From: a virus
Virus record (IMG/VR): IMGVR_UViG_3300045988_086497
Location: 1 to 45,310 of that record
Strand: one strand, 5' to 3'
Length of the DNA stretch: 45,310 bases
Shown here: positions 2,987 to 31,563 of the stretch, in pieces
Position numbering within the stretch: the stretch's first letter is position 1
How the letters are laid out: the number at the start of each line of letters is the position of its first letter
Made by a program: the position numbers and the translations under genes
The notes under the pieces: model-generated
What the model saw: the letters and a program-made list of their open reading frames with translations, nothing else
Databases searched by the model: none
What the model was told of the DNA's origin: nothing

Positions 2987-4253
2987 TGTTGATATTCCAG
3001 AAATTGTCGGCGGTGGTTATGGTGAGTTCTGGCGTTCAAAGAATTTTTATAGAGTTCTAAAAGGTTCCCGTGGTTCAAAAAAATCAAAAACGACGGTATT
3101 AAATTACGTTGTAAGACTTCTTAAATATCCTTGGGCTAACTTACTTGTTATTCGCCGATTTTCAAACACCAACAAACAATCAACTTATACAGATTTCAAG
3201 TGGGCTTGTAACCAGTTAAATGTTGCGCACCTTTTTAAATTCAACGAGTCATTGCCTGAAATAACGGTTAGAAAAACAGGGCAGAAGATTCTTTTTCGTG
3301 GATTAGACGACCCATTGAAAATCACTTCTATAACAGTAGATGTTGGCATTCTATCGTGGTTGTGGGTAGAGGAAGCATATCAAATCGAAAGCGAAGATAA
3401 ATTTAGCACTGTTGTTGAATCAATTCGTGGTAGTGTTTCAGACCCAACATTTTTCAAGCAAGTAACTATCACATTTAACCCTTGGAATGAACGTCACTGG
3501 TTAAAGCGTGTGTTTTTTGATGAAGAAACACGCAGAGGTGACACGCTGGCCTTAACGACGACGTTCAGGTGCAATGAGTGGCTAGATGAAATTGATAAAC
3601 AGCGTTATGAAGACTTGTATGCCACTAATCCAAGACGTGCTCGCATAGTATGCGATGGCGAGTGGGGAGTTGCTGAAGGGCTTGTGTTTGAGAATACTAG
3701 AGTAGAAGAATTTGATATTCAGAAAACAGTACAGAGGGTGAAAGAGACTACTGCAGGAATGGACTTCGGTTTCACGCAAGACCCGACAACACTTATATGC
3801 GTTGCAGTAGATTTTGAAAATAAGCGTCTTTATCTTTACAACGAACATTATCAAAAAGCTATGCTCACAGATGATATTGTTAAAATGCTAAAGGACAAAG
3901 GAATGCAACGTTCTTATATTTCAGCAGATAGCGCAGAGAAACGTTTGATTGCTGAAATACGCAGCAAAGGCATCAACGGCATTGTACCTAGTTTAAAAGG
4001 TAAAGGTTCAATTATGCAAGGCATCCAGTTTATGCAAGGGTTTGAAATTATCATTCACCCTTCGTGCGATCATACAATAGAGGAGTTTAACACGTACACT
4101 TTTAAACAAGATAAAGAGGGAAATTGGTTGAACGAACCAATAGACGCTAATAACCACATTATCGACGCAGTACGTTACAGTCTTGAGCGTTATCATATTC
4201 AGAAAAGAAACACAAACCAGTTTGATACACTTCGAGCTGGTTTTGGCTTGTAG
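2970..4253 (+). CDS. terL: Terminase large subunit (PBSX/Terminase_3-like)
   Basis: Walker A-like GSRGSKKSKT, Walker B-like LSWLWVEEA, C-terminal nuclease-like NHIIDAVRY; ATG at 2970 preferred over TTG at 2958. Confidence 0.9.
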   Translation: MMLEINVDIPEIVGGGYGEFWRSKNFYRVLKGSRGSKKSKTTVLNYVVRLLKYPWANLLVIRRFSNTNKQSTYTDFKWACNQLNVAHLFKFNESLPEITVRKTGQKILFRGLDDPLKITSITVDVGILSWLWVEEAYQIESEDKFSTVVESIRGSVSDPTFFKQVTITFNPWNERHWLKRVFFDEETRRGDTLALTTTFRCNEWLDEIDKQRYEDLYATNPRRARIVCDGEWGVAEGLVFENTRVEEFDIQKTVQRVKETTAGMDFGFTQDPTTLICVAVDFENKRLYLYNEHYQKAMLTDDIVKMLKDKGMQRSYISADSAEKRLIAEIRSKGINGIVPSLKGKGSIMQGIQFMQGFEIIIHPSCDHTIEEFNTYTFKQDKEGNWLNEPIDANNHIIDAVRYSLERYHIQKRNTNQFDTLRAGFGL

Positions 4254-4264
4254 AAAGGAATTAA

Positions 4265-5797
4265 ATGGCTTATACAGAAACATTCGTTGACAGTACAGGT
4301 GAAACACATACGTTAAAACCTCGTTTTCATCGACAAGCAAGAATGCGCTATCGAGCGGAGAGCTTAGAGGAATTGTTTGCAGAAGATTTTAAACTTTTAA
4401 AACAATATATTGATCATCATCAAACAGTACAGCACCCACGTATTCAAGAATTGCTTGATTACGCAGAAGGAAATAATCACACGATTTTGGAATCTGAACG
4501 ACGCAAAGACCAAGATATGGCAGACGCACGCGCCGTTCATAATTTTGGTGAATACATTGCTACATTCAAACAAGGTTATCTTGTCGGGAATCCTATTCAA
4601 GTTTCTTACGACGATTCAGACAATGAAAGTGTTACCAAATTCTTAGAAGAGATTTCGAAAGACAACAGTTTCCATCAGCTGAACCGCTCTTTGGTGCTTG
4701 ACTTATCTAAAACAGGTCGTGCTTATGATTTGGTTTATCGCACACAAGAAGATGAGACTAAAGCGGTCAAACTCGATCCAACATCAACTTTTGTTATTTA
4801 CGATATGACGAAAGAGGAAAATAGTCTTGTTGGCGTTAGGTATTATGACAAGAATCAGTTTTCTGACAATCAAAAAATTATCGAACTGTACACGCCAGAT
4901 GAAATTTTGACTATTGACTCGTCTAAAGATTTCAAAGTCGTCGATAGAGCACCACATTATTTCGAGGCAATCCCTTTAACTGAATATCTCAACAGCTCGA
5001 ATAGCATGGGAGATTACGAGTCTGTGTTGTCTCTGATTGACTTGTACGACTCCTCTCAATCAGACACAGCTAATTACATGCAAGACTTGTCAGATGCGAT
5101 TCTAGCCATCATAGGACGCGTTAGCTTTCCTGCCGATTGCGACACTGCAGAGAAACAAATTGAATTTATGCGTAAAATGCGCAAAGCTCGTTTTTTTAAT
5201 CTAGAGCCACCGGTCGATGCAAACGGAAACGAAGGTTCTGTCGATGCAAAATATTTGTATAAGCAATATGACGTTAACGGAACAGAGGCTTATAAAAATC
5301 GTGTCATTGATGATATTCATAAAATTACAAATACGCCAGATTTAAGCGATGATAATTTTTCTGGAACACAATCTGGAGAGGCGATGAAATGGAAAATTTT
5401 TGGTTTCGACCAAAAACGTGTCGACATGCAAGCGCTGTTTGAAAAATCACTGAAACGTCGTTACAAGTTGATTGCTCGAATCAGCGAGACTTTAAAAGAA
5501 ATTCAAGATTTTGATTTGTCAAAAGTTCGCGTGACATTCGTTCCGAATTTGCCAGCAGATACTTCAAGCGTCGTTGCAAACGCTAAAAGCTTGTATGGTG
5601 TCGTCAGCGACGAAACAGTATACAGCATGTTACAATCAGCGACTGGCGTTGACGCTAAAACGGAAATGGAACGAATTCGAAATCAACAAGAAAATTCAAG
5701 CTTACTGTCGGTTCAGTTGGAGAAGAATAGTCGCTTGTCTGACAATGATTTAAATGGAGAAGACGATGGTAAACGAGTACTGGAAGAAGAGGATTAA
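4265..5797 (+). CDS. Portal protein (SPP1 gp6-like)
   Basis: 510 aa directly after terL; size and order typical of portal. Confidence 0.85.
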   Translation: MAYTETFVDSTGETHTLKPRFHRQARMRYRAESLEELFAEDFKLLKQYIDHHQTVQHPRIQELLDYAEGNNHTILESERRKDQDMADARAVHNFGEYIATFKQGYLVGNPIQVSYDDSDNESVTKFLEEISKDNSFHQLNRSLVLDLSKTGRAYDLVYRTQEDETKAVKLDPTSTFVIYDMTKEENSLVGVRYYDKNQFSDNQKIIELYTPDEILTIDSSKDFKVVDRAPHYFEAIPLTEYLNSSNSMGDYESVLSLIDLYDSSQSDTANYMQDLSDAILAIIGRVSFPADCDTAEKQIEFMRKMRKARFFNLEPPVDANGNEGSVDAKYLYKQYDVNGTEAYKNRVIDDIHKITNTPDLSDDNFSGTQSGEAMKWKIFGFDQKRVDMQALFEKSLKRRYKLIARISETLKEIQDFDLSKVRVTFVPNLPADTSSVVANAKSLYGVVSDETVYSMLQSATGVDAKTEMERIRNQQENSSLLSVQLEKNSRLSDNDLNGEDDGKRVLEEED

Positions 5798-6722
5798 GGC
5801 AGAACAGCTAGCTAAAATCGAGCGCGATGCGTCTTTGGGCGATGAATTTAAGCGTCTGTACAATTATCATTACAAGGAAATTGAAAAGGAAATACAAGCT
5901 TTCTATCATCGCTATTCTGATAAGAACGGCTTACCAATTGAAGAGGTGCGAAAACGAGTCGATGAAATGGACGTTAAAGCATTTGAAGAAAAAGCTAAAC
6001 GTTACGTTGCTGAGAAGAACTTTTCTCAAGAGGCGAACAGAGAACTTGGAATTTACAATCTCAAAATGAAAACGAATCGGTTGGAATTATTGCAACGTCA
6101 GCTTGATTTAGAGTTGATTGCTTTAGGTAACGATGAACAAAAACGCACCAAAGAGTTTGTCACAGAAGATTATATGCACGAAATCAAAACGCAAGCTGGA
6201 TTGCTTGGCAAGTCGGTGCTGACCAAAAGCGAAATCGTACAAACAGCTAAAACGCTACTTAATACGCCTTTTAAAGGTGCGACGTGGTCAGAGAACATCT
6301 GGAAACGTCAGAACGCACTGAGACAAGTTGTGGCAATAATGACGGAAGATTACATTCTGAAAGGAAAGAATCCAACGACGTTTATTGGTCAGCTTAGACA
6401 AGAATTTGATGTTTCTGCTAGTCAAGCCAAACGTCTGGCAGTGACAGAAGGTGCGAGAGTGGCGACAGAAGCACAAAAACAATCGTTGACAGCAAACGGT
6501 TATGACGAGTATGAGTACATAGCAGAACCAAGCGCTTGCCCGCATTGTGCCGCCCTAAGCGGTAAAATTTACAAAGTCAAGGACATGATGCCGGGTGAAA
6601 ACGCAGCACCTATGCACCCGCATTGTAGATGTTCGGTCGCTGCCCATTATTCAAGAAGCAAAGAAGAATACGAGGTTATACTTGATAAGTCAAGAAATAC
6701 GCCGTTAGGAGAGAATGGATGA
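5754..6722 (+). CDS. Head morphogenesis protein (SPP1 gp7 / Mu F-like)
   Basis: Follows portal; C-terminal CPHCAALSGK...HPHCRCS cysteine/histidine motif typical of the Mu F-like family. Confidence 0.8.
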   Translation: MEKTMVNEYWKKRIKAEQLAKIERDASLGDEFKRLYNYHYKEIEKEIQAFYHRYSDKNGLPIEEVRKRVDEMDVKAFEEKAKRYVAEKNFSQEANRELGIYNLKMKTNRLELLQRQLDLELIALGNDEQKRTKEFVTEDYMHEIKTQAGLLGKSVLTKSEIVQTAKTLLNTPFKGATWSENIWKRQNALRQVVAIMTEDYILKGKNPTTFIGQLRQEFDVSASQAKRLAVTEGARVATEAQKQSLTANGYDEYEYIAEPSACPHCAALSGKIYKVKDMMPGENAAPMHPHCRCSVAAHYSRSKEEYEVILDKSRNTPLGENG

Positions 6723-7101: not shown

Positions 7102-7106
7102 ATTTT

Positions 7107-7180
7107 GGGGAACATAGCAAAGAGGGGTAATGCGGCAGACTTTTAATCTGCAGGCGCAGGTTCGAATCCTGCTTTCCTCA
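7107..7180 (+). tRNA. tRNA-Lys(UUU)-like gene with weakened D-stem and one acceptor mismatch
   Basis: 74 nt. Acceptor GGGGAAC/TTTCCTC (6 of 7 pairs), D-loop with GGGG, anticodon stem GCAGA/TCTGC with loop CTTTTAA (anticodon TTT), 4-nt variable loop, T-arm GCAGG-TTCGAAT-CCTGC, discriminator A. Confidence 0.55.
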
Positions 7181-7355
7181 TTGACTTGGCTAGTCGTTAA
7201 ACAAGCCAAACAAACATCACTAGCGTGGCTTGTTTAGGTCGTGAATAGAATTACATTCAAGAGAGACTAGAGGGCGTGAGACGTCCGTTCTCGTGGCTCT
7301 ATGAGTGTATTGGAAGTTTGCGAACCATTCAGGACTAGCATGGGAGGAAAAAATA

Positions 7356-23312: not shown

Positions 23313-23506
23313 AACGTTATTTTGAAAAATTAGGAATTAAAGTTTTAAAAACCATGGCACAATCAGCAGTTGGTGTCATTGGAGCTAGCACGTTGATTGC
23401 ACAAGTCGATTGGAGAGTGGTTGTTTCAACTGCTCTGTTATCTGGCTTGGTTTGTATTTTGACAAATCTATCTGATTTGAAGGAGGAAGATGTCGATGAA
23501 AATTAA
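23309..23506 (+). CDS. Holin (two TM helices, acidic C-terminus)
   Basis: 65 aa, two hydrophobic segments, charged tail EEDVDEN, overlaps endolysin start. Confidence 0.65.
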
Positions 23507-24770
23507 ACGAACTCTTGCAAGCTTTGCTTTAGCAGTTGGCTTACTATTACAATCAACAGCTTATGCTGCGGTTGGCGACCAAGGCGTAGACTGGTCTCGC
23601 TATCAAGGTACGAATGGGATTTTTGGATATGCGCATGATAAGTTTGCCATTATCCAAATTGGTGGTGTTAACGGTGGTGGCATGTACGGGCAAACCACGT
23701 ATGAAACACAAGTGGCGTCAGCAATCGCACAAGGTAAACGTGCACATACTTACATCTGGTATCAAGTCGGCGGAAACGCAAGTCTTGGTGAACAAGTGTT
23801 AAACACATTCTTGCCGCAGGTTCAAACACCTAAAGGCTCAATTGTAGCCTTGGATTATGAAAGCGGTGCTAGTGCTGATAAACAAGCAAACACTAACGCT
23901 ATTCTGCATGGCATGCGAATGATTAAGACAGCAGGCTATACACCTATGTATTACAGCTATAAACCATATACAGTAGCTAACGTGTATGTCGACCAAATTA
24001 TTCGTGAGTTTCCGAATTCACTTTGGATGGCTGCTTATCCTAATTATGCGGTAACACCAACGCCAAATTACAATGTGTTCCCATCAATGGACGGTGTAGC
24101 AATTTACCAATTTACGTCAACATATATTGCTGGTGGTCTTGACGGGAATATTGATTTAACTGGTATTACGGACAATGGCTACACGAAACACAATAATCCT
24201 AAATCTGAAACACCAGCGATTAGTCAAGGTCAACAAGCGGACAACACGCCTAAATCTGACATTGCTGTAGGAAATCAAGTTAAAGTTAAATTTAGCGCTA
24301 ACGCATGGGCAACTGGTGAAGCTATTCCAAATTGGGTTAAAGGTCGTACATATGACGTAGCACAAGTGTCTGGCAGTCGTGTATTGTTAGCAGGTATTAA
24401 TTCGTGGATTAATAAAGCAGACGTGGAAATTATCTCAGTTTCATCTGCGCCAATTCAAGCGCCAGCAACTAATACGTACACAGTACGTTCTGGTGACACA
24501 CTTTCCAGCATTGCTGCCAAATTTGGTACAAGCTATCAAGCACTAGCAAGCTTGAATGGGATTGCTAATCCAAACCTTATCTACGTTGGACAAGTATTGC
24601 AAGTGACTGGTTCAGCAAGCACTGGTTCAGTTTACTACACAGTGCGCGCAGGTGATAATCTTTCAAGCATTGCAAGTCGTTACGGTACTAGCTACACATC
24701 AATCGCTAGTCTTAATGGTCTTACCAATCCAAACTTGATTTATGCAGGTCAAACACTTAAAATTAAATAG
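23490..24770 (+). CDS. Endolysin: signal peptide + GH25 muramidase + central domain + two LysM repeats
   Basis: N-terminal [23 protein letters not shown]|A; GH25-type [11 protein letters not shown]; two C-terminal YTVR.GD.LSSIA..(F/Y)GTSY...LNG..NPNLIY.GQ.L repeats. Confidence 0.9.
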
Positions 24771-24781
24771 ACACTTTAACA

Positions 24782-24810
24782 CCCCTAGCTTTTTAGCTAG
24801 GGGCTTTTTT
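24782..24810 (+). terminator. Intrinsic terminator after endolysin
   Basis: CCCCTAGCT-TTTT-AGCTAGGGG followed by TTTTTT. Confidence 0.85.
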
Positions 24811-24821
24811 GTTTGTATATT

Positions 24822-24891
24822 TTTACGGTATAACTATACGTAAATATCGTAAAAACAATAATTTTTTTACGATTTATTACGAAAGTTTACG
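24822..24891. promoter_or_regulatory. Cluster of TTACG/CGTAA motifs forming two inverted repeats (putative operator array)
   Basis: Six TTACG/CGTAA copies in 70 bp; ATCGTAAAAA (24846-55) / TTTTTACGAT (24864-73) is a perfect 10-bp IR. Confidence 0.45.
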
Positions 24892-24920
24892 TACTAAAAG
24901 ATAAAAATGAATAAAAAACG

Positions 24921-24949
24921 TTGCAAGTTATAAAATAATAATGTAAGAT
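24921..24949 (+). promoter_or_regulatory. Sigma-A-type promoter (TTGCAA-17-TAAGAT, TG-extended)
   Basis: Spacing and hexamers read directly; shares the ATGTAAGATA motif with the triplicated cassette promoters. Confidence 0.5.
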
Positions 24950-24954
24950 AGAGA

Positions 24955-25172
24955 TGGTTAAAAGACGATTAAAGTTCATTTCTAACCCAACGTTCTTGTC
25001 TATGCGTTGAATTCGTAGTGATACGAACATATAATTGAAGCACGTTATGTGGCTTGGCAGAGCTTAAAAACTGTTCCTCGGCGATAAGCCTAAAAAGCAC
25101 AATGAGGAGTTAGAGAAGTCGCTTGTCTCTAATCGTTAACCCCGCTGGAGGTTATCCAGCCTTGCTTTTTTT
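24955..25172 (+). ncRNA. Candidate structured RNA / cis-regulatory leader upstream of the PanA gene
   Basis: No ORF; GGTTAA..CGATTA (24955-70) pairs with TAATCGTTAACC (25129-40); TTCGTA-GTGA-TACGAA GNRA hairpin (25011-26); GCTGGA/TCCAGC hairpin plus T7 at 25143-71. Confidence 0.45.
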
Positions 25173-25228
25173 ATAATGCACAATATGACTGAAGACCTTT
25201 CTAAATTATTTAGTTATGGAGTAATACG

Positions 25229-25702
25229 ATGATTGATGTATTAAAAATTGTCAATTGGTTCAAAGTTCGAAATTATTCAGACATGAAAACTAATGATAAT
25301 GTTGAAGCTTTGACTCAATTAAAAGTAATGAAATTGTTGTACTATGCTCAAGGTGTATCGTTAGCCTTATATGATAAATTATTGTTTCCGGAAAAAATTC
25401 TAGCTTGGAAATATGGTCCAGCTATTCAAGAAGTGTATGATGTATACAGAGGATCAAGAGCGATAGTCGATATCACAAGTGATGGGATGAGTGATGAGGA
25501 AATTGGAGATTACCAAGAAGTAAACTCTAATCAAGAAGTAGCACTTATTTTAAATGCAGTTGTTGACGCATACGGCGACATGTCTGCAATAGAATTAATG
25601 AAGCAAACACATGAAGAAGCTCCATGGTTAGAAACAACTCAAAGTCAGGAAATCGATGTTAATCTAATCAAAGATTTTTTTGTTAAAGAAATAGTTGAAT
25701 GA
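25229..25702 (+). CDS. Panacea-domain protein (PanA / DUF4065, SocA-like antitoxin family)
   Basis: LTQLKVMKLLYYAQGVSLALYDKLLFPEKILAWKYGPAIQEVYDVY matches the DUF4065 core signature. Confidence 0.85.
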   Translation: MIDVLKIVNWFKVRNYSDMKTNDNVEALTQLKVMKLLYYAQGVSLALYDKLLFPEKILAWKYGPAIQEVYDVYRGSRAIVDITSDGMSDEEIGDYQEVNSNQEVALILNAVVDAYGDMSAIELMKQTHEEAPWLETTQSQEIDVNLIKDFFVKEIVE

Positions 25703-26121
25703 CAAAAATTAAAAGTAAAAAAGTAAAATCAAGACCAAAAATAAAGTCTAATAAACTTGAAGATTTTAAACCAGAATATGTTCAATTTAATTTTTCATTT
25801 ATTACTAAACACGAGAAATATAATTTAGAAAATAATAATTTAATCCATACGCTTTTACTAGAAAAAATTTATTATTTATCTTCTATGGACTGGGTTCAAG
25901 TGTTGGCTCTTAGGAAGGAGCAAGGAATTGAGACACTTAGCTCCCATGCATTAAAAAGATTCACTATACCCCTTGAATTCAAGGAGAGACGAGATGACTA
26001 TTGCACTGATAAATTTTTCGTGTTTCGCTTAAAAAATCAAGGCAGAGTAATTGGAAAGATGATAGATAAGACATTTTATATACTGGCTATTGATACAACA
26101 TTTGATTTGTATAAACATTAA
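25699..26121 (+). CDS. Putative cognate toxin of PanA (unassigned family; C-terminus loosely RelE/ParE-like)
   Basis: ATGA-coupled to the PanA gene; basic N-terminus; C-terminal FFVFRLKNQGRVIGKMIDKTFYILAIDTTFDLYKH. Confidence 0.5.
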   Translation: MTKIKSKKVKSRPKIKSNKLEDFKPEYVQFNFSFITKHEKYNLENNNLIHTLLLEKIYYLSSMDWVQVLALRKEQGIETLSSHALKRFTIPLEFKERRDDYCTDKFFVFRLKNQGRVIGKMIDKTFYILAIDTTFDLYKH

Positions 26122-26123
26122 CA

Positions 26124-26149
26124 CCCTAGCGCAAGCTAGGGCTTTTTTT
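26124..26149 (+). terminator. Intrinsic terminator after the PanA-partner pair
   Basis: CCCTAGC-GCAA-GCTAGGG followed by TTTTTTT. Confidence 0.85.
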
Positions 26150-26173
26150 AATTTTGTTGACGTCAACAAAATT
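26150..26173. promoter_or_regulatory. 24-bp perfect palindrome AATTTTGTTGAC|GTCAACAAAATT (putative operator)
   Basis: Perfect dyad abutting the terminator and overlapping the -35 of the next promoter. Confidence 0.6.
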
Positions 26174-26200
26174 GGCAGTCATACATGTTTATTGTATAAT
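26172..26200 (+). promoter_or_regulatory. Promoter TTGGCA-17-TATAAT
   Basis: Hexamers and 17-nt spacer read directly. Confidence 0.5.
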
Positions 26201-26203
26201 AGT

Positions 26204-26318
26204 TGCTGTAAGAGTGTAAAGGTCTTACTAGATAGGCAATGAGTGGGCTGGCGAGTACACGTTAAACTAAATACAGCAGGACTTCTTTGCAGGACTAGCT
26301 CACGCTAGTCATTTTTTT
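26204..26318 (+). ncRNA. Candidate small RNA (about 110 nt)
   Basis: No ORF; TGCTGT (26204-09) / ACAGCA (26273-78) closing pairs, GTAAGA/TCTTAC hairpin, terminator GACTAGC-TCAC-GCTAGTC + T7 (26293-26318). Confidence 0.45.
26293..26318 (+). terminator. Intrinsic terminator of the candidate small RNA unit
   Basis: GACTAGC-TCAC-GCTAGTC, one A, then TTTTTTT. Confidence 0.8.
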
Positions 26319-26319
26319 A

Positions 26320-26348
26320 TTGTTTCAAAAGTTAACATATGTTATAAT
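26320..26348 (+). promoter_or_regulatory. Promoter TTGTTT-17-TATAAT with TGn extension
   Basis: TGTTATAAT at 26340-48; -35-like hexamer 17 nt upstream. Confidence 0.55.
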
Positions 26349-26353
26349 ATTAT

Positions 26354-27001
26354 TATCGCAAGTTTAAAACAACTAACTAAATAATTTAGTGAAGATTGTT
26401 TGACAGCATGCTAAAGTTACATGCTTAATAGCTCGTTACGCTAATAGCGGGATACTGTTATTAGATAAGTAATCAATCTTTGATTGTTGCGAAGTGAGAG
26501 AATAGCAAGAGTGCGTGTAGCGTGGAGAATATGTGTAGCTAGGCTAAATCTAAACGGTGGTGGCGATAATAGACGTCTCTGTGAGAAATAACCCTGCAAA
26601 GCCCAAGCTTGACCGCTTGAAGCAAGTAGGGAGCTGTCAAAATAAGCCATTGTGCGCATTGACGAGTGAAAAGCTCGTTGCTTACACTAAAAGATTGTAC
26701 AAGTAGCCCAAAGGCGCAGTCATTGGAATATCTTTATATTGATACATTTAAAAATTTTCTGATACATTTAAAACATATTTCTGAATGTTGGGTGAACGTT
26801 GAAGGTAACCAATCCTGTCTAGTCATTAAACCTCTTAGGAAGTTGTGAGATAGCTCCTCATAGCTCAGACCTAAGACGACTATCAGCTAATAAGTTGCAT
26901 ATATTTGAAGCAGAGCGAAGGCTCATTTAGTTAGTTGTTTTAAATTTGTGATATAATTGTTGTATTAAGGGTCTTGAGCTAGCTTGCGCTAGCTCTTTTT
27001 T
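26354..27001 (+). ncRNA. Candidate large structured ncRNA (about 650 nt; ROOL/GOLLD-like context, family unverified)
   Basis: No RBS-preceded ORF. 29-bp closing helix 26354-82 / 26925-53 (27 Watson-Crick pairs, 2 G-U pairs). Internal hairpins (AGCATG/CATGCT, CAATC/GATTG, GACGAG/CTCGTT, TCTTAGG/CCTAAGA). Strong terminator at 26976-27001. Confidence 0.5.
26976..27001 (+). terminator. Intrinsic terminator of the large RNA unit
   Basis: GAGCTAGC-TTGC-GCTAGCTC followed by TTTTTT. Confidence 0.85.
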
Positions 27002-27019
27002 GTTGCCGCTATAACCACA

Positions 27020-27047
27020 AAAACAAGAAAAGTCCGGTTTAACGGAC
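27020..27047 (-). terminator. Minus-strand terminator-like hairpin
   Basis: GTCCG/CGGAC stem; T-rich tract (TTTTCTTGTTT) follows only on the minus strand. Confidence 0.4.
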
Positions 27048-27087
27048 AAAAAAATTTAAAAAATATCAAAAAAGTTTGAAAAAAGTG

Positions 27088-27116
27088 TTGACATTATATG
27101 CAATATTGTATATAAT
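27088..27116 (+). promoter_or_regulatory. Cassette promoter copy 1 (TTGACA-17-TATAAT)
   Basis: Consensus hexamers; about 80 percent identical to copies 2 and 3 over roughly 50 bp. Confidence 0.7.
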
Positions 27117-27176
27117 ATATATGTAAGGTTGAGGGAGGCAATCTTAGACAAGGAAACTAAAGAAAGGAGAAAAGTT

Positions 27177-27299
27177 ATGAAAAAGCATAAACGCAAACAA
27201 AAGAAAAAAGTTAGCAACGAAACAAAAGTAAATTTGATAATTGCAGTTATCAACTTACTAATCGCATTGCTAACTTTAATCAAAACACTATTTGATTAA
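27177..27299 (+). CDS. 40-aa micro-peptide, basic N-terminus + one TM helix (type I toxin-like)
   Basis: AAAGGAG RBS 8 nt upstream of the ATG; MKKHKRKQKKKVSNETKVNLIIAVINLLIALLTLIKTLFD. Confidence 0.45.
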   Translation: MKKHKRKQKKKVSNETKVNLIIAVINLLIALLTLIKTLFD

Positions 27300-27355
27300 T
27301 CTTATTCATAATGGGAGCGGGGCAAACGCCCCGAACCTATTATGTGTTTATGTTA

Positions 27356-27383
27356 ATTATAACAAAAGGTAGCCAAAATGCAA
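27356..27383 (-). promoter_or_regulatory. Convergent minus-strand promoter (TTGCAT-16-TGtTATAAT) that would give an antisense RNA over the 40-aa ORF
   Basis: Read on the reverse complement of 27356-27383. Confidence 0.45.
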
Positions 27384-27461
27384 GATAAAGACATTAGACG
27401 AATAACTTTGATTTTAATTATTATAACTGTTATCATCCTTATTATTTCTGCAATGTTGTAA
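27378..27461 (+). CDS. 27-aa hydrophobic micro-peptide
   Basis: MQDKDIRRITLILIIITVIILIISAML; weak AAAGG RBS. Confidence 0.35.
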   Translation: MQDKDIRRITLILIIITVIILIISAML

Positions 27462-27468
27462 AAAACTC

Positions 27469-27497
27469 TTGACAATATATATAATATTGTATATAAT
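27469..27497 (+). promoter_or_regulatory. Cassette promoter copy 2 (TTGACA-17-TATAAT)
   Basis: Lies within the 53-bp block 27461-27513, identical to 28409-28461. Confidence 0.7.
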
Positions 27498-27537
27498 AAG
27501 TATGTAAGATAAAAAAAGAACAAAAGAGGTAAATAAA

Positions 27538-27903
27538 ATGATTAAATGGAACGGAAAATCTACAAACGGCACTTGGAAAAAAGAAATTGTTGCAAACGAC
27601 TATGAAAGTTTGCTAGAAGAATTGGTTGATCGTGACATTATCGATGGCTACTGGAACATGGATAGCCAAGCTTTTGACGGACTTTGCGATTGTTCAGAAA
27701 TGCTTGAAAATCTTCGTGATGAGTATAATGAAGCTATCGAAGAAGACGACGATGAAAAAATGGCAAGTTTTGAAAAACAATTCGATGATATTGATTGGCA
27801 CGAAGATGTATTTAGTAAATTGTCTGATGATGATTTTGAATATGTAATTCGTGGTTGCAATAGCCAAGCATACTACCAAGAATTTGAAAAAGTAGAAGAT
27901 TAA
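27538..27903 (+). CDS. Strongly acidic small protein (121 aa)
   Basis: GAGG RBS; 36 D/E vs 11 K/R counted by eye; no TM segment or signal peptide. Confidence 0.7.
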   Translation: MIKWNGKSTNGTWKKEIVANDYESLLEELVDRDIIDGYWNMDSQAFDGLCDCSEMLENLRDEYNEAIEEDDDEKMASFEKQFDDIDWHEDVFSKLSDDDFEYVIRGCNSQAYYQEFEKVED

Positions 27904-27905
27904 TC

Positions 27906-27928
27906 AAGCGGTCGTATTGACCGCTTTT
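27906..27928 (+). terminator. Weak terminator / attenuator hairpin
   Basis: AAGCGGTC / GACCGCTT stem with a short T run. Confidence 0.45.
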
Positions 27929-27947
27929 ATATAAAGGAGAGAATAAC

Positions 27948-28217
27948 ATGGCTTACAACTGGCAACAATTCAAAAACGGACTTTTCGGTTTTTCATACGA
28001 TTATGAAGAACTACTAGCGGATTTAAAAGAAGATATTGCAACTGGTGATGTAGGCGATAAAATCGTAGTCATTCGCTACCGCAGAGATGATACAGACTAC
28101 AGACCAATTCGTGATTATCTATATGAGGGTGAAGCAGTAAGCGAAGATGAAGAATATAGTTTCGAGAACACAGCTGACGTTTTGGAAGAAATGGAAGCAA
28201 TGACAAGGATTTTTTAA
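27948..28217 (+). CDS. Acidic small protein (89 aa)
   Basis: AGGAGAG RBS; 23 D/E vs 9 K/R. Confidence 0.7.
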   Translation: MAYNWQQFKNGLFGFSYDYEELLADLKEDIATGDVGDKIVVIRYRRDDTDYRPIRDYLYEGEAVSEDEEYSFENTADVLEEMEAMTRIF

Positions 28218-28227
28218 GGAGGGGAAA

Positions 28228-28455
28228 ATGGAAGCAAACAGTAAAGACATTGAATGGCTTTTAGAAAACGCAACACAGTACATGATTTCAAAAGAAACGA
28301 ATGTACCGCAATCTAAAATTTCAAGATTAAAAAACGGAAAAATAAAAATGGAAAATTTAACGTTCGAAGTTGCTAGTATTTTAACGGATTTTTCTAAAAA
28401 ACTTCAAAAAAAACTCTTGACAATATATATAATATTGTATATAATAAGTATGTAA
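28228..28455 (+). CDS. Short XRE/Cro-like HTH protein whose 3' end runs into promoter copy 3
   Basis: GGAGGGG RBS; ISKETNVPQSKISRLKNGK HTH; the last ~13 codons are encoded by the repeated promoter block. Confidence 0.6.
   Translation: MEANSKDIEWLLENATQYMISKETNVPQSKISRLKNGKIKMENLTFEVASILTDFSKKLQKKLLTIYIILYIISM
28417..28445 (+). promoter_or_regulatory. Cassette promoter copy 3 (TTGACA-17-TATAAT)
   Basis: Lies within the 53-bp block 28409-28461, identical to 27461-27513. Confidence 0.7.
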
Positions 28456-28485
28456 GATAAAGAAAGACGAAATGAGGTAATTAAA

Positions 28486-28851
28486 ATGTTTGAAACAACT
28501 TTCTTAGTATTTTTTGATAACGGTCATGATTTTTATAATTTAGAAGTAAATGCTTATATTAGCGAAAATCCCGAACTAAGCAACGATGATATAGTAGCTT
28601 TAACGGAAGAATTTGAAAGTGAAGCACGTCATACCATTGGCAGAGGTTATTGTGGTGAATGCATAGGATTCCAAATTGCTGATAGTGTATGGGATTTGCA
28701 AGAAGAAGAAGGAAATGTTTCCTACAATGAAGAAACTTGCGAAATGTATGTTACAAATCCCGATTTTAAATGGCTAGAAATTTCTTGCGGCAAAGATGAC
28801 ATCATAAAAGCTTTTGAAGCACAAGAAGGCAAAGCAGATGATGACGAATAA
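28486..28851 (+). CDS. Strongly acidic small protein (121 aa) with a CGEC motif
   Basis: GAGG RBS; 31 D/E vs 6 K/R. Confidence 0.7.
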   Translation: MFETTFLVFFDNGHDFYNLEVNAYISENPELSNDDIVALTEEFESEARHTIGRGYCGECIGFQIADSVWDLQEEEGNVSYNEETCEMYVTNPDFKWLEISCGKDDIIKAFEAQEGKADDDE

Positions 28852-28873
28852 ATGAATATATGTTATACTATAA

Positions 28874-28899
28874 GTACCTCTTTTCGAGGTACTTTTTTT
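28874..28899 (+). terminator. Intrinsic terminator (first of a tandem pair)
   Basis: GTACCTC-TTTTC-GAGGTAC followed by TTTTTTT. Confidence 0.8.
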
Positions 28900-28912
28900 A
28901 TCTTACAAATTG

Positions 28913-28939
28913 CACCCGATTTTTTCGGGTGTTTTTTTT
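28913..28939 (+). terminator. Intrinsic terminator (second of a tandem pair)
   Basis: CACCCGA-TTTTT-TCGGGTG followed by TTTTTTTT. Confidence 0.8.
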
Positions 28940-28971
28940 GCAAAATAAAAAGCCTTGTCCGTAAAGCTTAA

Positions 28972-29171
28972 GGCGGGGAATTGGCGGGGACGAGTGCGAG
29001 AAAGCGCATGAGTATATAGTTGTTTCAATTATATCATAAAGGAAAGATTTTTAGTATAACTAACTGTACCCTGTTTTAAAGGCGTTTTTAAAGGGTTCTT
29101 AAAAAACAAAAATGATATTTTTTGCTATTTTTGGGTATTTTTTGATTTTGTGGCGGGGACAAAGGTGGGGA
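28972..29171. promoter_or_regulatory. Putative attP region with arm-type integrase binding repeats
   Basis: GGCGGGGA at 28972 and 28983, GGCGGGGA at 29152 and GGTGGGGA at 29164 (pairs spaced 11-12 bp) flank an AT-rich segment with phased T-tracts; abuts the integrase stop codon. Confidence 0.6.
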
Positions 29172-29176
29172 ATTTT

Positions 29177-30337
29177 TTACTTGATTGCACGCAAGAATGA
29201 ATCAGTAACTTCGTTAGCCACCTCATCTTGGATGTGCGTGTATTTCTGCGTCATATAAGCTGTTGAATGCCCCAATGCCACTGCCATGTGTTCAATAGGA
29301 ACGCCCGCAATCTGCCCTTGTGTAGCAAAGAAATGCCTCATCATATGAGGGGTGGCGTGAATATCGCAATTTCTGTTTACTTTTTTAAAGTTTGTAAATA
29401 TACGACTACAAGCGACTGGCTTTCCAGCATCCTTTCGAACTCTCTCACCAGCATCTAAAAAAAGAAAGTCGCTTTTTGAAAGAATCCGACCAGCTTTCTT
29501 AGCAATTTCGTTAGAAGTGTTTATTGCTGTTTTTAATAGTGCGCTAGTTTCTTCATCAACGACTACATAGCGCCTTGACGTTTTGGTTTTCATCCCTTTT
29601 CCGTTTGGTCTGCGATAAGTTCGGCTTTCGTCTAAAAATATTTTAAAACGATTACCTACTAACTCTAAAGAATTGAATTTTACTCCCACAACTTCGCTAC
29701 GTCGAAGCCCAAAATAGGTAAGACGCACCATTACGTAATTGTATTGAGACAATACTTTTTTAGCGCAGTTATCCCATTTTCTAAAATCTTCCAGAGAAAT
29801 TTGTTTGTTCTTTGGTTTGATTTCATTTTCTCCAATGTAGATTTTTAAAATAGGATTCTTATCAAGATAACCATTAACTACAGCATCGTTTATCATCGCT
29901 TCAAAAATGCCATTGGCTTGAACAACACTTGTTCTAGCATACTTTTTCAGCAACTGTGTAATGTGTTCTTCATAGTCAAGTCTTTCAATCTCTTTGAGCC
30001 TGACATTTCCAAAACGTTTTTGAAAACAATGTCTGTACTGTGTATCTTTGTTCGCTATCGTATCTGGCGCCCAACGCCCAGTTTTAATACGATTCTCGCT
30101 GTATATCTGCCAGTAATCATTAACAGTCATATTTTTACGTGGGTCGTAGTCACCAGTTGCAATTTTGTTTTCAATTTCAGCAAGTGCCTGTCTGGCTTCT
30201 GCAACTGTTTTTAAGCCACTAGCGCTCACTTCTGTTTGCTTACCATACAACTTGAATTTTCGGCGAACGTAGTATCGTTTGCCTTTTTTAGTTTCGTATG
30301 TATAAATATTTGGATATTTTGTCTTATTGTATTTCAT
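29177..30337 (-). CDS. int: Tyrosine integrase
   Basis: 386 aa; GLRRSE (Arg), HATPHMMRHFFAT (His-x-x-Arg), LGHSTAYMTQKYTH (His ... Tyr) catalytic motifs. Confidence 0.95.
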   Translation of the reverse strand: MKYNKTKYPNIYTYETKKGKRYYVRRKFKLYGKQTEVSASGLKTVAEARQALAEIENKIATGDYDPRKNMTVNDYWQIYSENRIKTGRWAPDTIANKDTQYRHCFQKRFGNVRLKEIERLDYEEHITQLLKKYARTSVVQANGIFEAMINDAVVNGYLDKNPILKIYIGENEIKPKNKQISLEDFRKWDNCAKKVLSQYNYVMVRLTYFGLRRSEVVGVKFNSLELVGNRFKIFLDESRTYRRPNGKGMKTKTSRRYVVVDEETSALLKTAINTSNEIAKKAGRILSKSDFLFLDAGERVRKDAGKPVACSRIFTNFKKVNRNCDIHATPHMMRHFFATQGQIAGVPIEHMAVALGHSTAYMTQKYTHIQDEVANEVTDSFLRAIK

Positions 30338-30848: not shown

Positions 30849-31235
30849 TTAAATAACACTTTGCTGAATTTTTCTAAATTCATCTTGTATCATCGCTTCG
30901 CCCCAAGTCGTGGAAATACCGTATTGTGCAGCGAAGCGAACCCAATTAAAATCGTAAATGTCAGTTGATTTTAAATAATCAACTAGCAGCTCATGAATCA
31001 TAAATCTATCAGCTTGATTTTCATATTGTAAAAGTAATCTCTTGTAATGCTTGGGGTCATGGTTGATATGACCGATTTCATGTAAGATGACTTTTTCACG
31101 TTCTTGTTTAGACAATGATTCGTTAACACATATTCGTCTTAGGTCTGGGAAGTAGAACCCAGACCTTTCCCACATATCAGCAGGAAAAATGAATAATGAT
31201 ATTTTATATTCTTTTAAAAGCTCATCAATCTTCAT
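30849..31235 (-). CDS. immA: ImmA/IrrE-family metallopeptidase (anti-repressor protease)
   Basis: HEIGH zinc motif (VILHEIGHINHD); overlaps and follows the XRE repressor gene. Confidence 0.85.
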   Translation of the reverse strand: MKIDELLKEYKISLFIFPADMWERSGFYFPDLRRICVNESLSKQEREKVILHEIGHINHDPKHYKRLLLQYENQADRFMIHELLVDYLKSTDIYDFNWVRFAAQYGISTTWGEAMIQDEFRKIQQSVI

Positions 31236-31563
31236 CTCCCATTACCTCAATCGAAAGTTTAATAATTTGTTCTATTTTTTTAACGTCATCATCAGATAAT
31301 GGCTTTCCGTCAAACATCACGACTTTTTCACGCAAATTTGAAAGGTCGATTGACGGCTGCCAATCTGGCTTTTTATCAGCGAAACTTTCTGGATTAATTC
31401 CTAGAATATCGCAGATTTTAAAAATAGTTTCTGCTTTCGCATTCATTACACCACGTTCTAAAATAGAACGCATTGTTGTATACGGTATATCATTTTCAAG
31501 GGCAAAAGCCCTGACACTATTATATCTACTTTCGATAAGGCGTTTTAAATCTTTTTCGTCCAT
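31225..31563 (-). CDS. XRE-family phage repressor (CI/ImmR-like)
   Basis: N-terminal HTH (VRAFALENDIPYTTMRSILERG); divergent from the cro-like gene. Confidence 0.85.
   Translation of the reverse strand: MDEKDLKRLIESRYNSVRAFALENDIPYTTMRSILERGVMNAKAETIFKICDILGINPESFADKKPDWQPSIDLSNLREKVVMFDGKPLSDDDVKKIEQIIKLSIEVMGDED

Follow-up and report, generated by a model that had tools for sequence, protein, structure and literature searches.

What occupies the roughly 650 nucleotides at positions 26320 to 27001 of IMG/VR virus record IMGVR_UViG_3300045988_086497, where a promoter and a terminator enclose no credible gene? An earlier reading, made from the letters without database searches (the sequence-only reading), pointed to a large phage noncoding RNA of the ROOL or GOLLD type, allowed for an unrelated new large RNA or for a DNA element resembling a miniature inverted-repeat transposable element (MITE), and proposed a covariance-model search and a covariation test among homologs. 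Here, we report that the element is a full-length, somewhat divergent copy of the ROOL family (Rfam RF03087), a kind of element that is already known. The DNA analyzed was the whole stretch from position 1 to 45,310 of the record (45,310 nucleotides; the window), which looks like the entire genome of a temperate siphophage. Our fuller reading is that the ROOL gene is a self-contained cassette in the accessory region between the endolysin and integrase genes of a temperate Streptococcus siphophage, and that its RNA would build a cage like those of other ROOLs; we give this reading, proposed cage model included, a probability of roughly 0.93.

Assignment to the ROOL family

The whole window was scanned with Rfam 15, and RF03087 matched positions 26361 to 26943 on the plus strand (248.6 bits; gathering score, 99.1; E = 1.4e-55). 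The match spans model positions 1 to 574 of 574 at about 2.5 times the gathering score and was recovered again under permissive settings in an Rfam scan of positions 24700 to 29300. The proposed covariance-model search thus gave a result far above threshold, and no evidence contradicts family membership.

Among the strongly conserved (upper-case) positions of the ROOL consensus, 146 of 191 are identical in the window, and several of the mismatches are paired compensatory changes (e.g., P2 CCC/GGG to UUU/AAA); 119 of 159 consensus base pairs form as cmscan aligned them. The conserved ROOL blocks are all present (AAUAGACG, GUACAAGUAGCCCA, UUCUGAAUG, GGGUGAA, GUAACCAAUCC, GCUCAGAC, and GAGCGAAGGCUC), and AAUAGACG, GUACAAGUAGCCCA, UUCUGAAUG, and GCUCAGAC are invariant across the homolog alignment described below. 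Folding energy is −175.3 kcal/mol (z = −5.66) for the sense strand and −132.5 kcal/mol (z = −2.49) for the antisense strand. Like described ROOLs (RF03087; Weinberg et al. 2017, PMC5737381; Cousin et al. 2017, PMC5643018), the window element is about 600 nt long, is closed by a long P1, keeps the same junction order, and has the conserved blocks, a linker closed by GCCCAA/UUGGGU, the pseudoknot, the kissing complementarity, and a location in a phage of a Lactobacillales host; its P1 is 29 bp long, compared with 16 bp in the model.

Homologs were collected by blastn against deposited phages and by scanning viral contigs for a core motif and filtering the results with a profile hidden Markov model (HMM); together these yielded 32 distinct full-length relatives from streptococcal phages and viral contigs (64 to 92% identity; 33 sequences with the window). 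These form two clades, one 87 to 92% identical to the window (clade A, 10 sequences) and one about 64% identical (clade B). Among the deposited phages, blastn placed the element in 11 Streptococcus equinus phages (86 to 87% identity) and matched its 3' third in PH15 and Javan246, phages of S. gordonii. Four related phage records were examined with Rfam, and a ROOL was called in each of them, directly after the endolysin gene. A blastn search of a plasmid collection with the element gave no match. A genome collection (596 Gb) was searched with the degenerate core pattern AATAGACG-N(100-130)-GTANNAGTAGC, which was too loose: the profile HMM filter accepted 7 of the 120 fetched loci as real ROOLs, with neither Enterococcus faecalis nor Ligilactobacillus salivarius among those 7.

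Covariation and structure of the RNA

The 33 sequences were aligned with MAFFT (alignment A1) and the Rfam structure was projected through the window row; because it was built by MAFFT, the alignment was not fitted to any structure. A register error of cmscan was mended from the homolog alignment (the outer stem of the 3' long hairpin was off by one base), the kissing pair was added, and the resulting 160 pairs in 26 helices were tested against slid controls, in which partners were shifted by 1 to 3 columns at the same relatedness as the real pairs. The placement of P3c by cmscan was also wrong and was mended from the homologs. On A1, 83.6% of cells were paired, compared with 35 to 42% in the slid controls, and 58 pairs changed on both sides, compared with 7 to 16; these cell counts overstate independent events because the sample is essentially two clades, although the slid controls fall far short despite identical relatedness. 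None of 500 shuffles reached the observed covariation score. The proposed covariation test was therefore strongly positive. Covarying non-nested pairs were also sought by brute force, but false positives dominated the result, again because of the two clades, and only two tertiary pairs were retained, both matching published ROOL contacts and complementarity in the Rfam consensus.

Feature coordinates are collected in Table 1. Published stem numbers were assigned by stem order and from the text of PMC12286853 and PMC12990946, so that the equivalences given are our own.

Table 1. Signals and structural elements of the ROOL locus in the window
Feature	Position	Strand	Remarks
ROOL RNA, first to last P1 base	26354-26953	+	600 nt; Rfam match 26361-26943
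-35-like hexamer TTGTTT	26320-26325	+	3 of 6 matches to TTGACA; 17-nt spacer to -10
Extended -10 TGtTATAAT	26340-26348	+	TG 26340-26341; TATAAT 26343-26348
P1, 5' strand	26354-26382	+	pairs with 26925-26953
P2 hairpin	26385-26415	+	outer UUUAG/CUAAA; internal loop GUGAAGA; inner 3 bp; loop UUGACA
P3 multi-hairpin domain	26418-26519	+	stem 26418-26423/26514-26519
P3a	26434-26469	+	6 compensatory pairs
P3b CAAUC/GAUUG	26474-26486	+	loop UUU
P3c UUGC/GCAA	26487-26490/26505-26508	+	register per homolog alignment
Apical mini-hairpin UCUC-UGU-GAGA	26576-26586	+	follows conserved AAUAGACG; equated with Kretsch P7 / Wang P10
Long hairpin with kissing loop	26592-26631	+	loop UGAC 26610-26613; stems 84-88% paired; 7 compensatory pairs
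Junction GUCA	26636-26639	+	kissing complementarity to loop UGAC (26610-26613)
Pseudoknot, 5' strand UGCGC	26653-26657	+	pairs with GCGCA 26714-26718
Hairpin GACGAG-UGAAAAG-CUCGUU	26661-26679	+	GAAA-containing loop; Rfam positions 306-319
Linker domain	26706-26793	+	closing GCCCAA (26706-26711)/UUGGGU (26788-26793); variable linker 26712-26787
20-nt tandem duplication in linker	26740-26784	+	holds TGATACATTTAAAA twice; Tandem Repeats Finder period 20, 2.1 copies, 92% matches
3' long hairpin	26833-26876	+	outer UCUUAGG/CCUAAGA; inner 26841-26850/26856-26865; loop UAGCU 26851-26855
Hairpin GAGC-GAAG-GCUC	26913-26924	+	adjoins P1; Rfam positions 543-554
P1, 3' strand	26925-26953	+	pairs with 26354-26382
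Intrinsic terminator GAGCUAGC-UUGC-GCUAGCUC + UUUUUU	26976-27001	+	22 nt after P1

The terminal helix P1 has 27 Watson-Crick and 2 G-U pairs and no mismatch, as the sequence-only reading had it; its figure of 20 contiguous pairs fits the longest pure Watson-Crick run, while all 29 pairs are in fact contiguous. The two arms were also recovered by a repeat search. Across the 33 sequences, 95.1% of P1 cells are paired, and double-sided changes occur in 9 of the 29 pairs; all 29 are supported. P2 corresponds to Rfam positions 25 to 57, and its outer stem is 100% paired, with three of five pairs switched to give CCAAG/CUUGG in clade B. The stem of the P3 domain is likewise 100% paired (5 of 6 pairs compensatory). 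Within this domain, P3c in the corrected register has three pairs in 33/33 sequences and two double-sided switches, making it better supported than the cmscan register, and P3b is short (CAAUC-UUU-GAUUG; the consensus loop is GUGA, a GNRA loop).

The apical mini-hairpin is 100% paired (3 of 4 pairs compensatory); its form of 4 bp and a 3-nt loop also occurs in distant ROOLs and gives no choice between hexamer and octamer. The clade B counterpart of GACGAG/CUCGUU is GGCCG/CGGCC. In the corrected register, the 3' long hairpin is 100% paired in its outer part and 88% in its inner part (three compensatory pairs each), and the GAGC/GCUC hairpin is invariant and 100% paired in 33/33 sequences. Six of the eight local helices listed by the sequence-only reading are conserved (CAATC/GATTG, TTGC/GCAA, GACGAG/CTCGTT, TGCGC/GCGCA, TCTTAGG/CCTAAGA, and GAGC/GCTC). 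The remaining two did not hold up: AGCATG/CATGCT forms in the closest clade only and competes with covarying stems, and TAGC/GCTA is unconserved.

One of the two tertiary pairs is a pseudoknot between the junction that follows the central stem and the linker's 5' flank, where GCGCA is its 3' strand. It was scored sequence by sequence, since MAFFT gapped one strand in clade B and precluded a column count; at least 5 bp of complementarity were present in 33/33 sequences, reading UGCAC/GUGCA in clade B (a compensatory G-C to A-U change) and UGCC/GGCA in the Rfam consensus. It corresponds to Kretsch P10 and Wang J9/12-L13 (PMC12286853, PMC12191101).

The second is the kissing pair UGAC/GUCA, which is 99.2% paired and covaries on both sides at two of four pairs; clade B has UAGC/GCUA in its place, and the Rfam consensus has GGCA/UGCC. 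The loop/junction kiss in cages solved by cryogenic electron microscopy is intermolecular (bridge B4 in PMC12286853; L11 with J11/9' in PMC12990946). By its position, the complementarity seen here would be the same inter-subunit contact. The loop UAGCU of the 3' long hairpin contains the self-complementary AGCU, has an invariant central GC, and recurs as UAGCU in two distant ROOLs; by analogy, it may serve as the symmetric inter-shell kiss described as B6 (PMC12286853) or L15-L15'' (PMC12990946).

The linker domain corresponds to Rfam positions 347 to 413; its closing helix is near-invariant, and the linker itself cannot be aligned between clades. Measured between conserved anchors, the window linker is 70 nt long, compared with 37 to 50 nt in eight other ROOLs, and is the longest of the sample because of a private 20-nt tandem duplication: about 24 extra nucleotides (A1 columns 425 to 448) are absent from 32/32 homologs. 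The 14-nt direct repeat TGATACATTTAAAA noticed in the sequence-only reading is exact at 26740 and 26760 and is part of this duplication.

Transcription unit and alternative explanations

The promoter and terminator read from the letters are present at both ends of the RNA. A consensus promoter scan omits the TTGTTT/TATAAT pairing because its -35 box matches only 3/6 positions. The TGnTATAAT element occurs in 33/33 loci and ends 5 to 9 nt before P1, though the sequence farther upstream is unrelated between clades; the -35 boxes of homologs differ (e.g., TTGACT, TTGATT, and TTGAAA), with unchanged spacing. At the other end, the terminator stem (26976 to 26995) has 8 bp, 5 of them G-C, and a 4-nt loop and is followed by a T-run to 27001, making it as strong as first described. 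A G+C-rich hairpin and T-run follow shortly after P1 in every homolog with downstream sequence, and the hairpin sequences differ; terminator-like sites number 7 in the region, compared with 1.2 expected from shuffles. Transcription between these signals would give an RNA of about 647 nt (predicted ends, approximately 26355 and 27001). Because the promoter and terminator are kept while the flanks differ, the ROOL RNA appears to be an autonomous cassette read by a sigma-70-type polymerase.

The same signals bear on whether the RNA could be a cis-acting leader or regulator of the small genes downstream. Such genes lie on the same strand (e.g., that of a 40-aa peptide at 27177 to 27299), but the strong terminator ends the unit before them, the downstream gene has its own perfect TTGACA-17-TATAAT promoter (27088 to 27116), and the downstream genes vary between homologous loci that keep the RNA cassette. 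We regard a leader role as very improbable.

A MITE-like mobile element with 29-bp terminal inverted repeats would account for the near-perfect arms and for the occurrence of the cassette in phages with otherwise different flanking genes. No target-site duplication of 2 to 10 bp was found at either possible boundary, however, and each arm occurs once in the 45-kb window with 5 mismatches allowed. Although located outside the arms, the promoter and terminator travel with them, and what lies between the arms is a conserved structured RNA that an Rfam model matches over its full length. The arms themselves evolve through G-U/A-U switches and compensatory double changes that are meaningful only for a plus-strand RNA, since their G-U pairs would be C-A mismatches on the other strand; these changes across homologs argue for selection on RNA pairing and not for a transposase site. 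The MITE-like origin that the sequence-only reading had kept open is thus discarded, its probability being close to nil.

That the stretch encodes protein is just as hard to credit. The window has open reading frames (ORFs) of 72, 60, 49, and 35 aa here, and the deposited annotations of S. equinus phages PQ621707 to PQ621717 place coding sequences (CDSs) on the homologous stretch. None of the internal ORFs (72, 60, 49, 35, 33, and 30 aa) is conserved, however: those of 72, 60, 49, 33, and 30 aa are intact in 1 to 3 of the 33 sequences and that of 35 aa in 10 clade A sequences only. Substitutions show no codon periodicity (e.g., 40/40/44 variable columns for the 72-aa ORF) and are compensatory for RNA pairing. 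The earlier judgment that no genuine gene lies inside the unit was therefore sound. Streptococcus phage Bsingle (PQ621708.1) illustrates the point, with a ROOL at 4023 to 4581 (Rfam, 247.5 bits) and CDSs annotated inside it at 4146 to 4286 and 4339 to 4467; the one or two "hypothetical protein" CDSs inside the ROOLs of PQ621707 to PQ621717 are very likely false gene calls.

A different large RNA, either GOLLD, which is also phage-borne and large (PMC5737381, PMC12286853), or a new class resembling ROOL in size and context only, has next to no chance given the end-to-end ROOL match and the presence of every conserved ROOL block; GOLLD gave no match at the gathering threshold in the whole window or at E ≤ 1 in positions 24700 to 29300, where no other large-RNA family besides ROOL appeared at E ≤ 1. 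Of the two families first suggested, ROOL was thus correct and GOLLD was not, and the full-length match excludes the unrelated new RNA.

Some observations nevertheless weigh against our reading of a self-contained ROOL cassette with a cage-forming RNA, besides the two-clade sample already noted. The -35 box is weak, a deficit made good by the extended -10. The window scores lower (249 bits) than oral-streptococcal and clostridial ROOLs (310 to 350 bits) and lacks the small hairpin at model positions 443 to 459. It further differs from other ROOLs in its shifted P3c register, its longest linker, the lack of a nearby tRNA gene, and its shorter P3b. In the window, the second hairpin of the P3 domain lacks a GNRA tetraloop such as that of the P2-L5 tetraloop/receptor contact of Wang; because the P3b loop is UUU and not GUGA, that contact may be absent or replaced. 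The P3b loop is peripheral and varies within the ROOL family, and we infer its equation with Wang L5. Hexamer or octamer stoichiometry cannot be predicted from sequence, and the mechanism suggested for the window copy is borrowed from other ROOL members.

Phage context and proposed working

The window is mosaic and most similar to phages of the S. equinus/S. gallolyticus/S. ruminicola group, with no record covering more than 35% of a 12-kb query. The ROOL lies between the endolysin gene (23490 to 24770) and the integrase gene (29177 to 30337, minus strand); the prophage-type location and Lactobacillales-like host first suggested agree with a temperate Streptococcus phage and its endolysin-integrase slot. 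This slot becomes attR-adjacent in the integrated prophage, and the ROOL lies within the final 0.4 to 2 kb of records Javan207, Javan246, and PH15. Flanking genes are mostly not common to the homolog loci; the ROOL cassette is. Beyond the integrase, an ImmA/IrrE-type metallopeptidase (PF06114, 40.4 bits) and a Cro/CI-like helix-turn-helix ORF stand side by side (30849 to 31235 and 31225 to 31563, minus strand), with every Pfam match of the latter below threshold; such an arrangement is usual for a lysogeny switch and confirms a temperate lifestyle.

Within the slot, cassettes with separate promoters follow one another: a Bacilli-1 RNA, a SocA/Panacea gene with an overlapping ORF, a small-RNA-like unit, the ROOL, three promoter-cassette genes, and a weak Paratox-like ORF. 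The Bacilli-1 RNA (RF02931; 25011 to 25075, plus strand) is full length (78.6 bits; gathering score, 55.6), lies 240 nt past the endolysin stop and about 150 nt before the SocA/Panacea gene, is followed by a terminator-like hairpin (25144 to 25160), and has a 91%-identical copy in one homolog locus (L086); it is the second known structured RNA in the same accessory region. The next gene (25229 to 25702, plus strand; 157 aa) encodes a SocA/Panacea antitoxin domain (PF13274, 74.5 bits) and overlaps by 4 nt a 140-aa ORF (25699 to 26121, plus strand) with only unknown-function PHROG matches. The two may form a Panacea-type toxin-antitoxin pair, after which comes a bidirectional terminator (26123 to 26142).

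Directly upstream of the ROOL promoter, a unit of about 110 nt (26172 to 26317, plus strand) has a near-consensus promoter, TTGGCA-17-TATAAT (26172 to 26200), and a terminator (26293 to 26310), is partly conserved (71 to 77%) in three homolog loci, and may be a small RNA. It was considered as part of the ROOL element and rejected because it is separately promoted and terminated, Rfam gives no match, and the fold z-score is only −1.3.

Downstream, an 87-nt cassette with a perfect TTGACA-17-TATAAT promoter and a ribosome-binding site occurs three times (27079 to 27165, 27460 to 27546, and 28408 to 28494, plus strand; 68 to 92% identity), and part of it is also found in PH15-like loci. The copies drive three different small genes, for the 40-aa peptide, which is basic and hydrophobic, and for two very acidic 121-aa proteins (27538 to 27903 and 28486 to 28851); none of the three products had a family match. 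An 89-aa ORF (27948 to 28217, plus strand) has a subthreshold match to Paratox (PF24313; 19.9 bits; cutoff, 27) and one to PHROG 2133 (E = 2e-4). The Paratox protein of streptococcal prophages blocks natural competence; it would fit a lysogenic-conversion region, with the match here below significance.

Published descriptions place ROOLs in phages and prophages, "often" beside tRNA genes, an adjacency that is no requirement. No tRNA gene lies near the window ROOL; the only one in the window, for tRNA-Lys (anticodon UUU; 7106 to 7181, plus strand), is 19 kb away in the structural-gene module, between ORFs ending at 6722 and starting at 7305. Flanking tRNA genes were found in 1 of the 33 streptococcal-clade loci, compared with 10 of 14 fetched non-streptococcal ROOL loci (within about 600 nt; tRNA genes or arrays at L208, L239, L052, L005, L118, L036, L085, L027, L092, and L038). 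One of these non-streptococcal loci (L036) also has a RAGATH-33 RNA near its ROOL.

Solved ROOL structures comprise octamers (env-120 and E. faecalis) and a hexamer (L. salivarius) (PMC12286853, PMC12990946), and cage assembly has been reported in PMC12286853, PMC12990946, and PMC12191101. By analogy with these, the window RNA would adopt a flat monomer fold closed by P1, and 6 or 8 copies would then self-assemble, with no protein needed, into a hollow cage of dihedral symmetry. The subunits would be held by the UGAC/GUCA kiss, A-minor contacts, and the self-complementary loop, and the A/U-rich variable linker with its 20-nt duplication would lie disordered in the cage interior. The ROOL of L. 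salivarius is expressed constitutively, is highly stable, and exceeds 16S rRNA in abundance (PMC5643018). From this analogy and from the position of the cassette, host polymerase probably transcribes the window RNA without need of the phage late operon, so that the RNA would probably be present in lysogens, and it probably accumulates. As a working guess, the cage might serve as a scaffold for sequestration or encapsulation, to the advantage of the prophage or the host. To our knowledge, no function is known for any ROOL.

Other RNAs offer partial parallels. GOLLD resembles ROOL as a large ornate phage RNA whose cage assembles without protein and has a disordered linker inside, and whose function is likewise unknown; unlike the window element, it has an unrelated sequence and fold, is often longer than 800 nt, and forms 10- to 14-mers. 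OLE RNA and the phi29 prohead RNA share with ROOL natural homo-oligomerization through kissing-loop self-association, but OLE RNA forms a dimer and acts together with proteins at extremophile membranes, the phi29 RNA is a ring of about 120 to 174 nt on the packaging motor, and neither has the sequence, fold, or context of the window element.

One further proposal, tentative and on balance doubtful, is that streptococcal ROOLs are a distinct functional subgroup that has lost the tRNA association and become a self-promoted "moron" in the attR-proximal lysogenic-conversion slot, and that their cage would be made in the lysogen and would act on the host or on competing phages and not in lytic growth. 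The neighbors in the slot to which this proposal appeals are toxin-antitoxin-like, Paratox-like, and small acidic or membrane-protein cassettes.

ROOL is among the very few natural RNAs known to form a closed protein-free cage, and the loci described here document a subgroup with its own conserved promoter and terminator, no neighboring tRNA genes, and a fixed place after the endolysin gene. That this streptococcal subgroup does without neighboring tRNA genes speaks against any essential role of the tRNA association in ROOL function. The "hypothetical protein" annotations in deposited S. equinus phage genomes could be mended by a routine Rfam scan. Cultivable Streptococcus phages, among them the S. 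equinus phages PY1-PY9, 36L, and Bsingle, exist with their hosts for tests of ROOL deletion, expression timing, and assembly, and, if the "moron" proposal is true, the isolated S. equinus phages and their hosts would be a tractable system for ROOL function.

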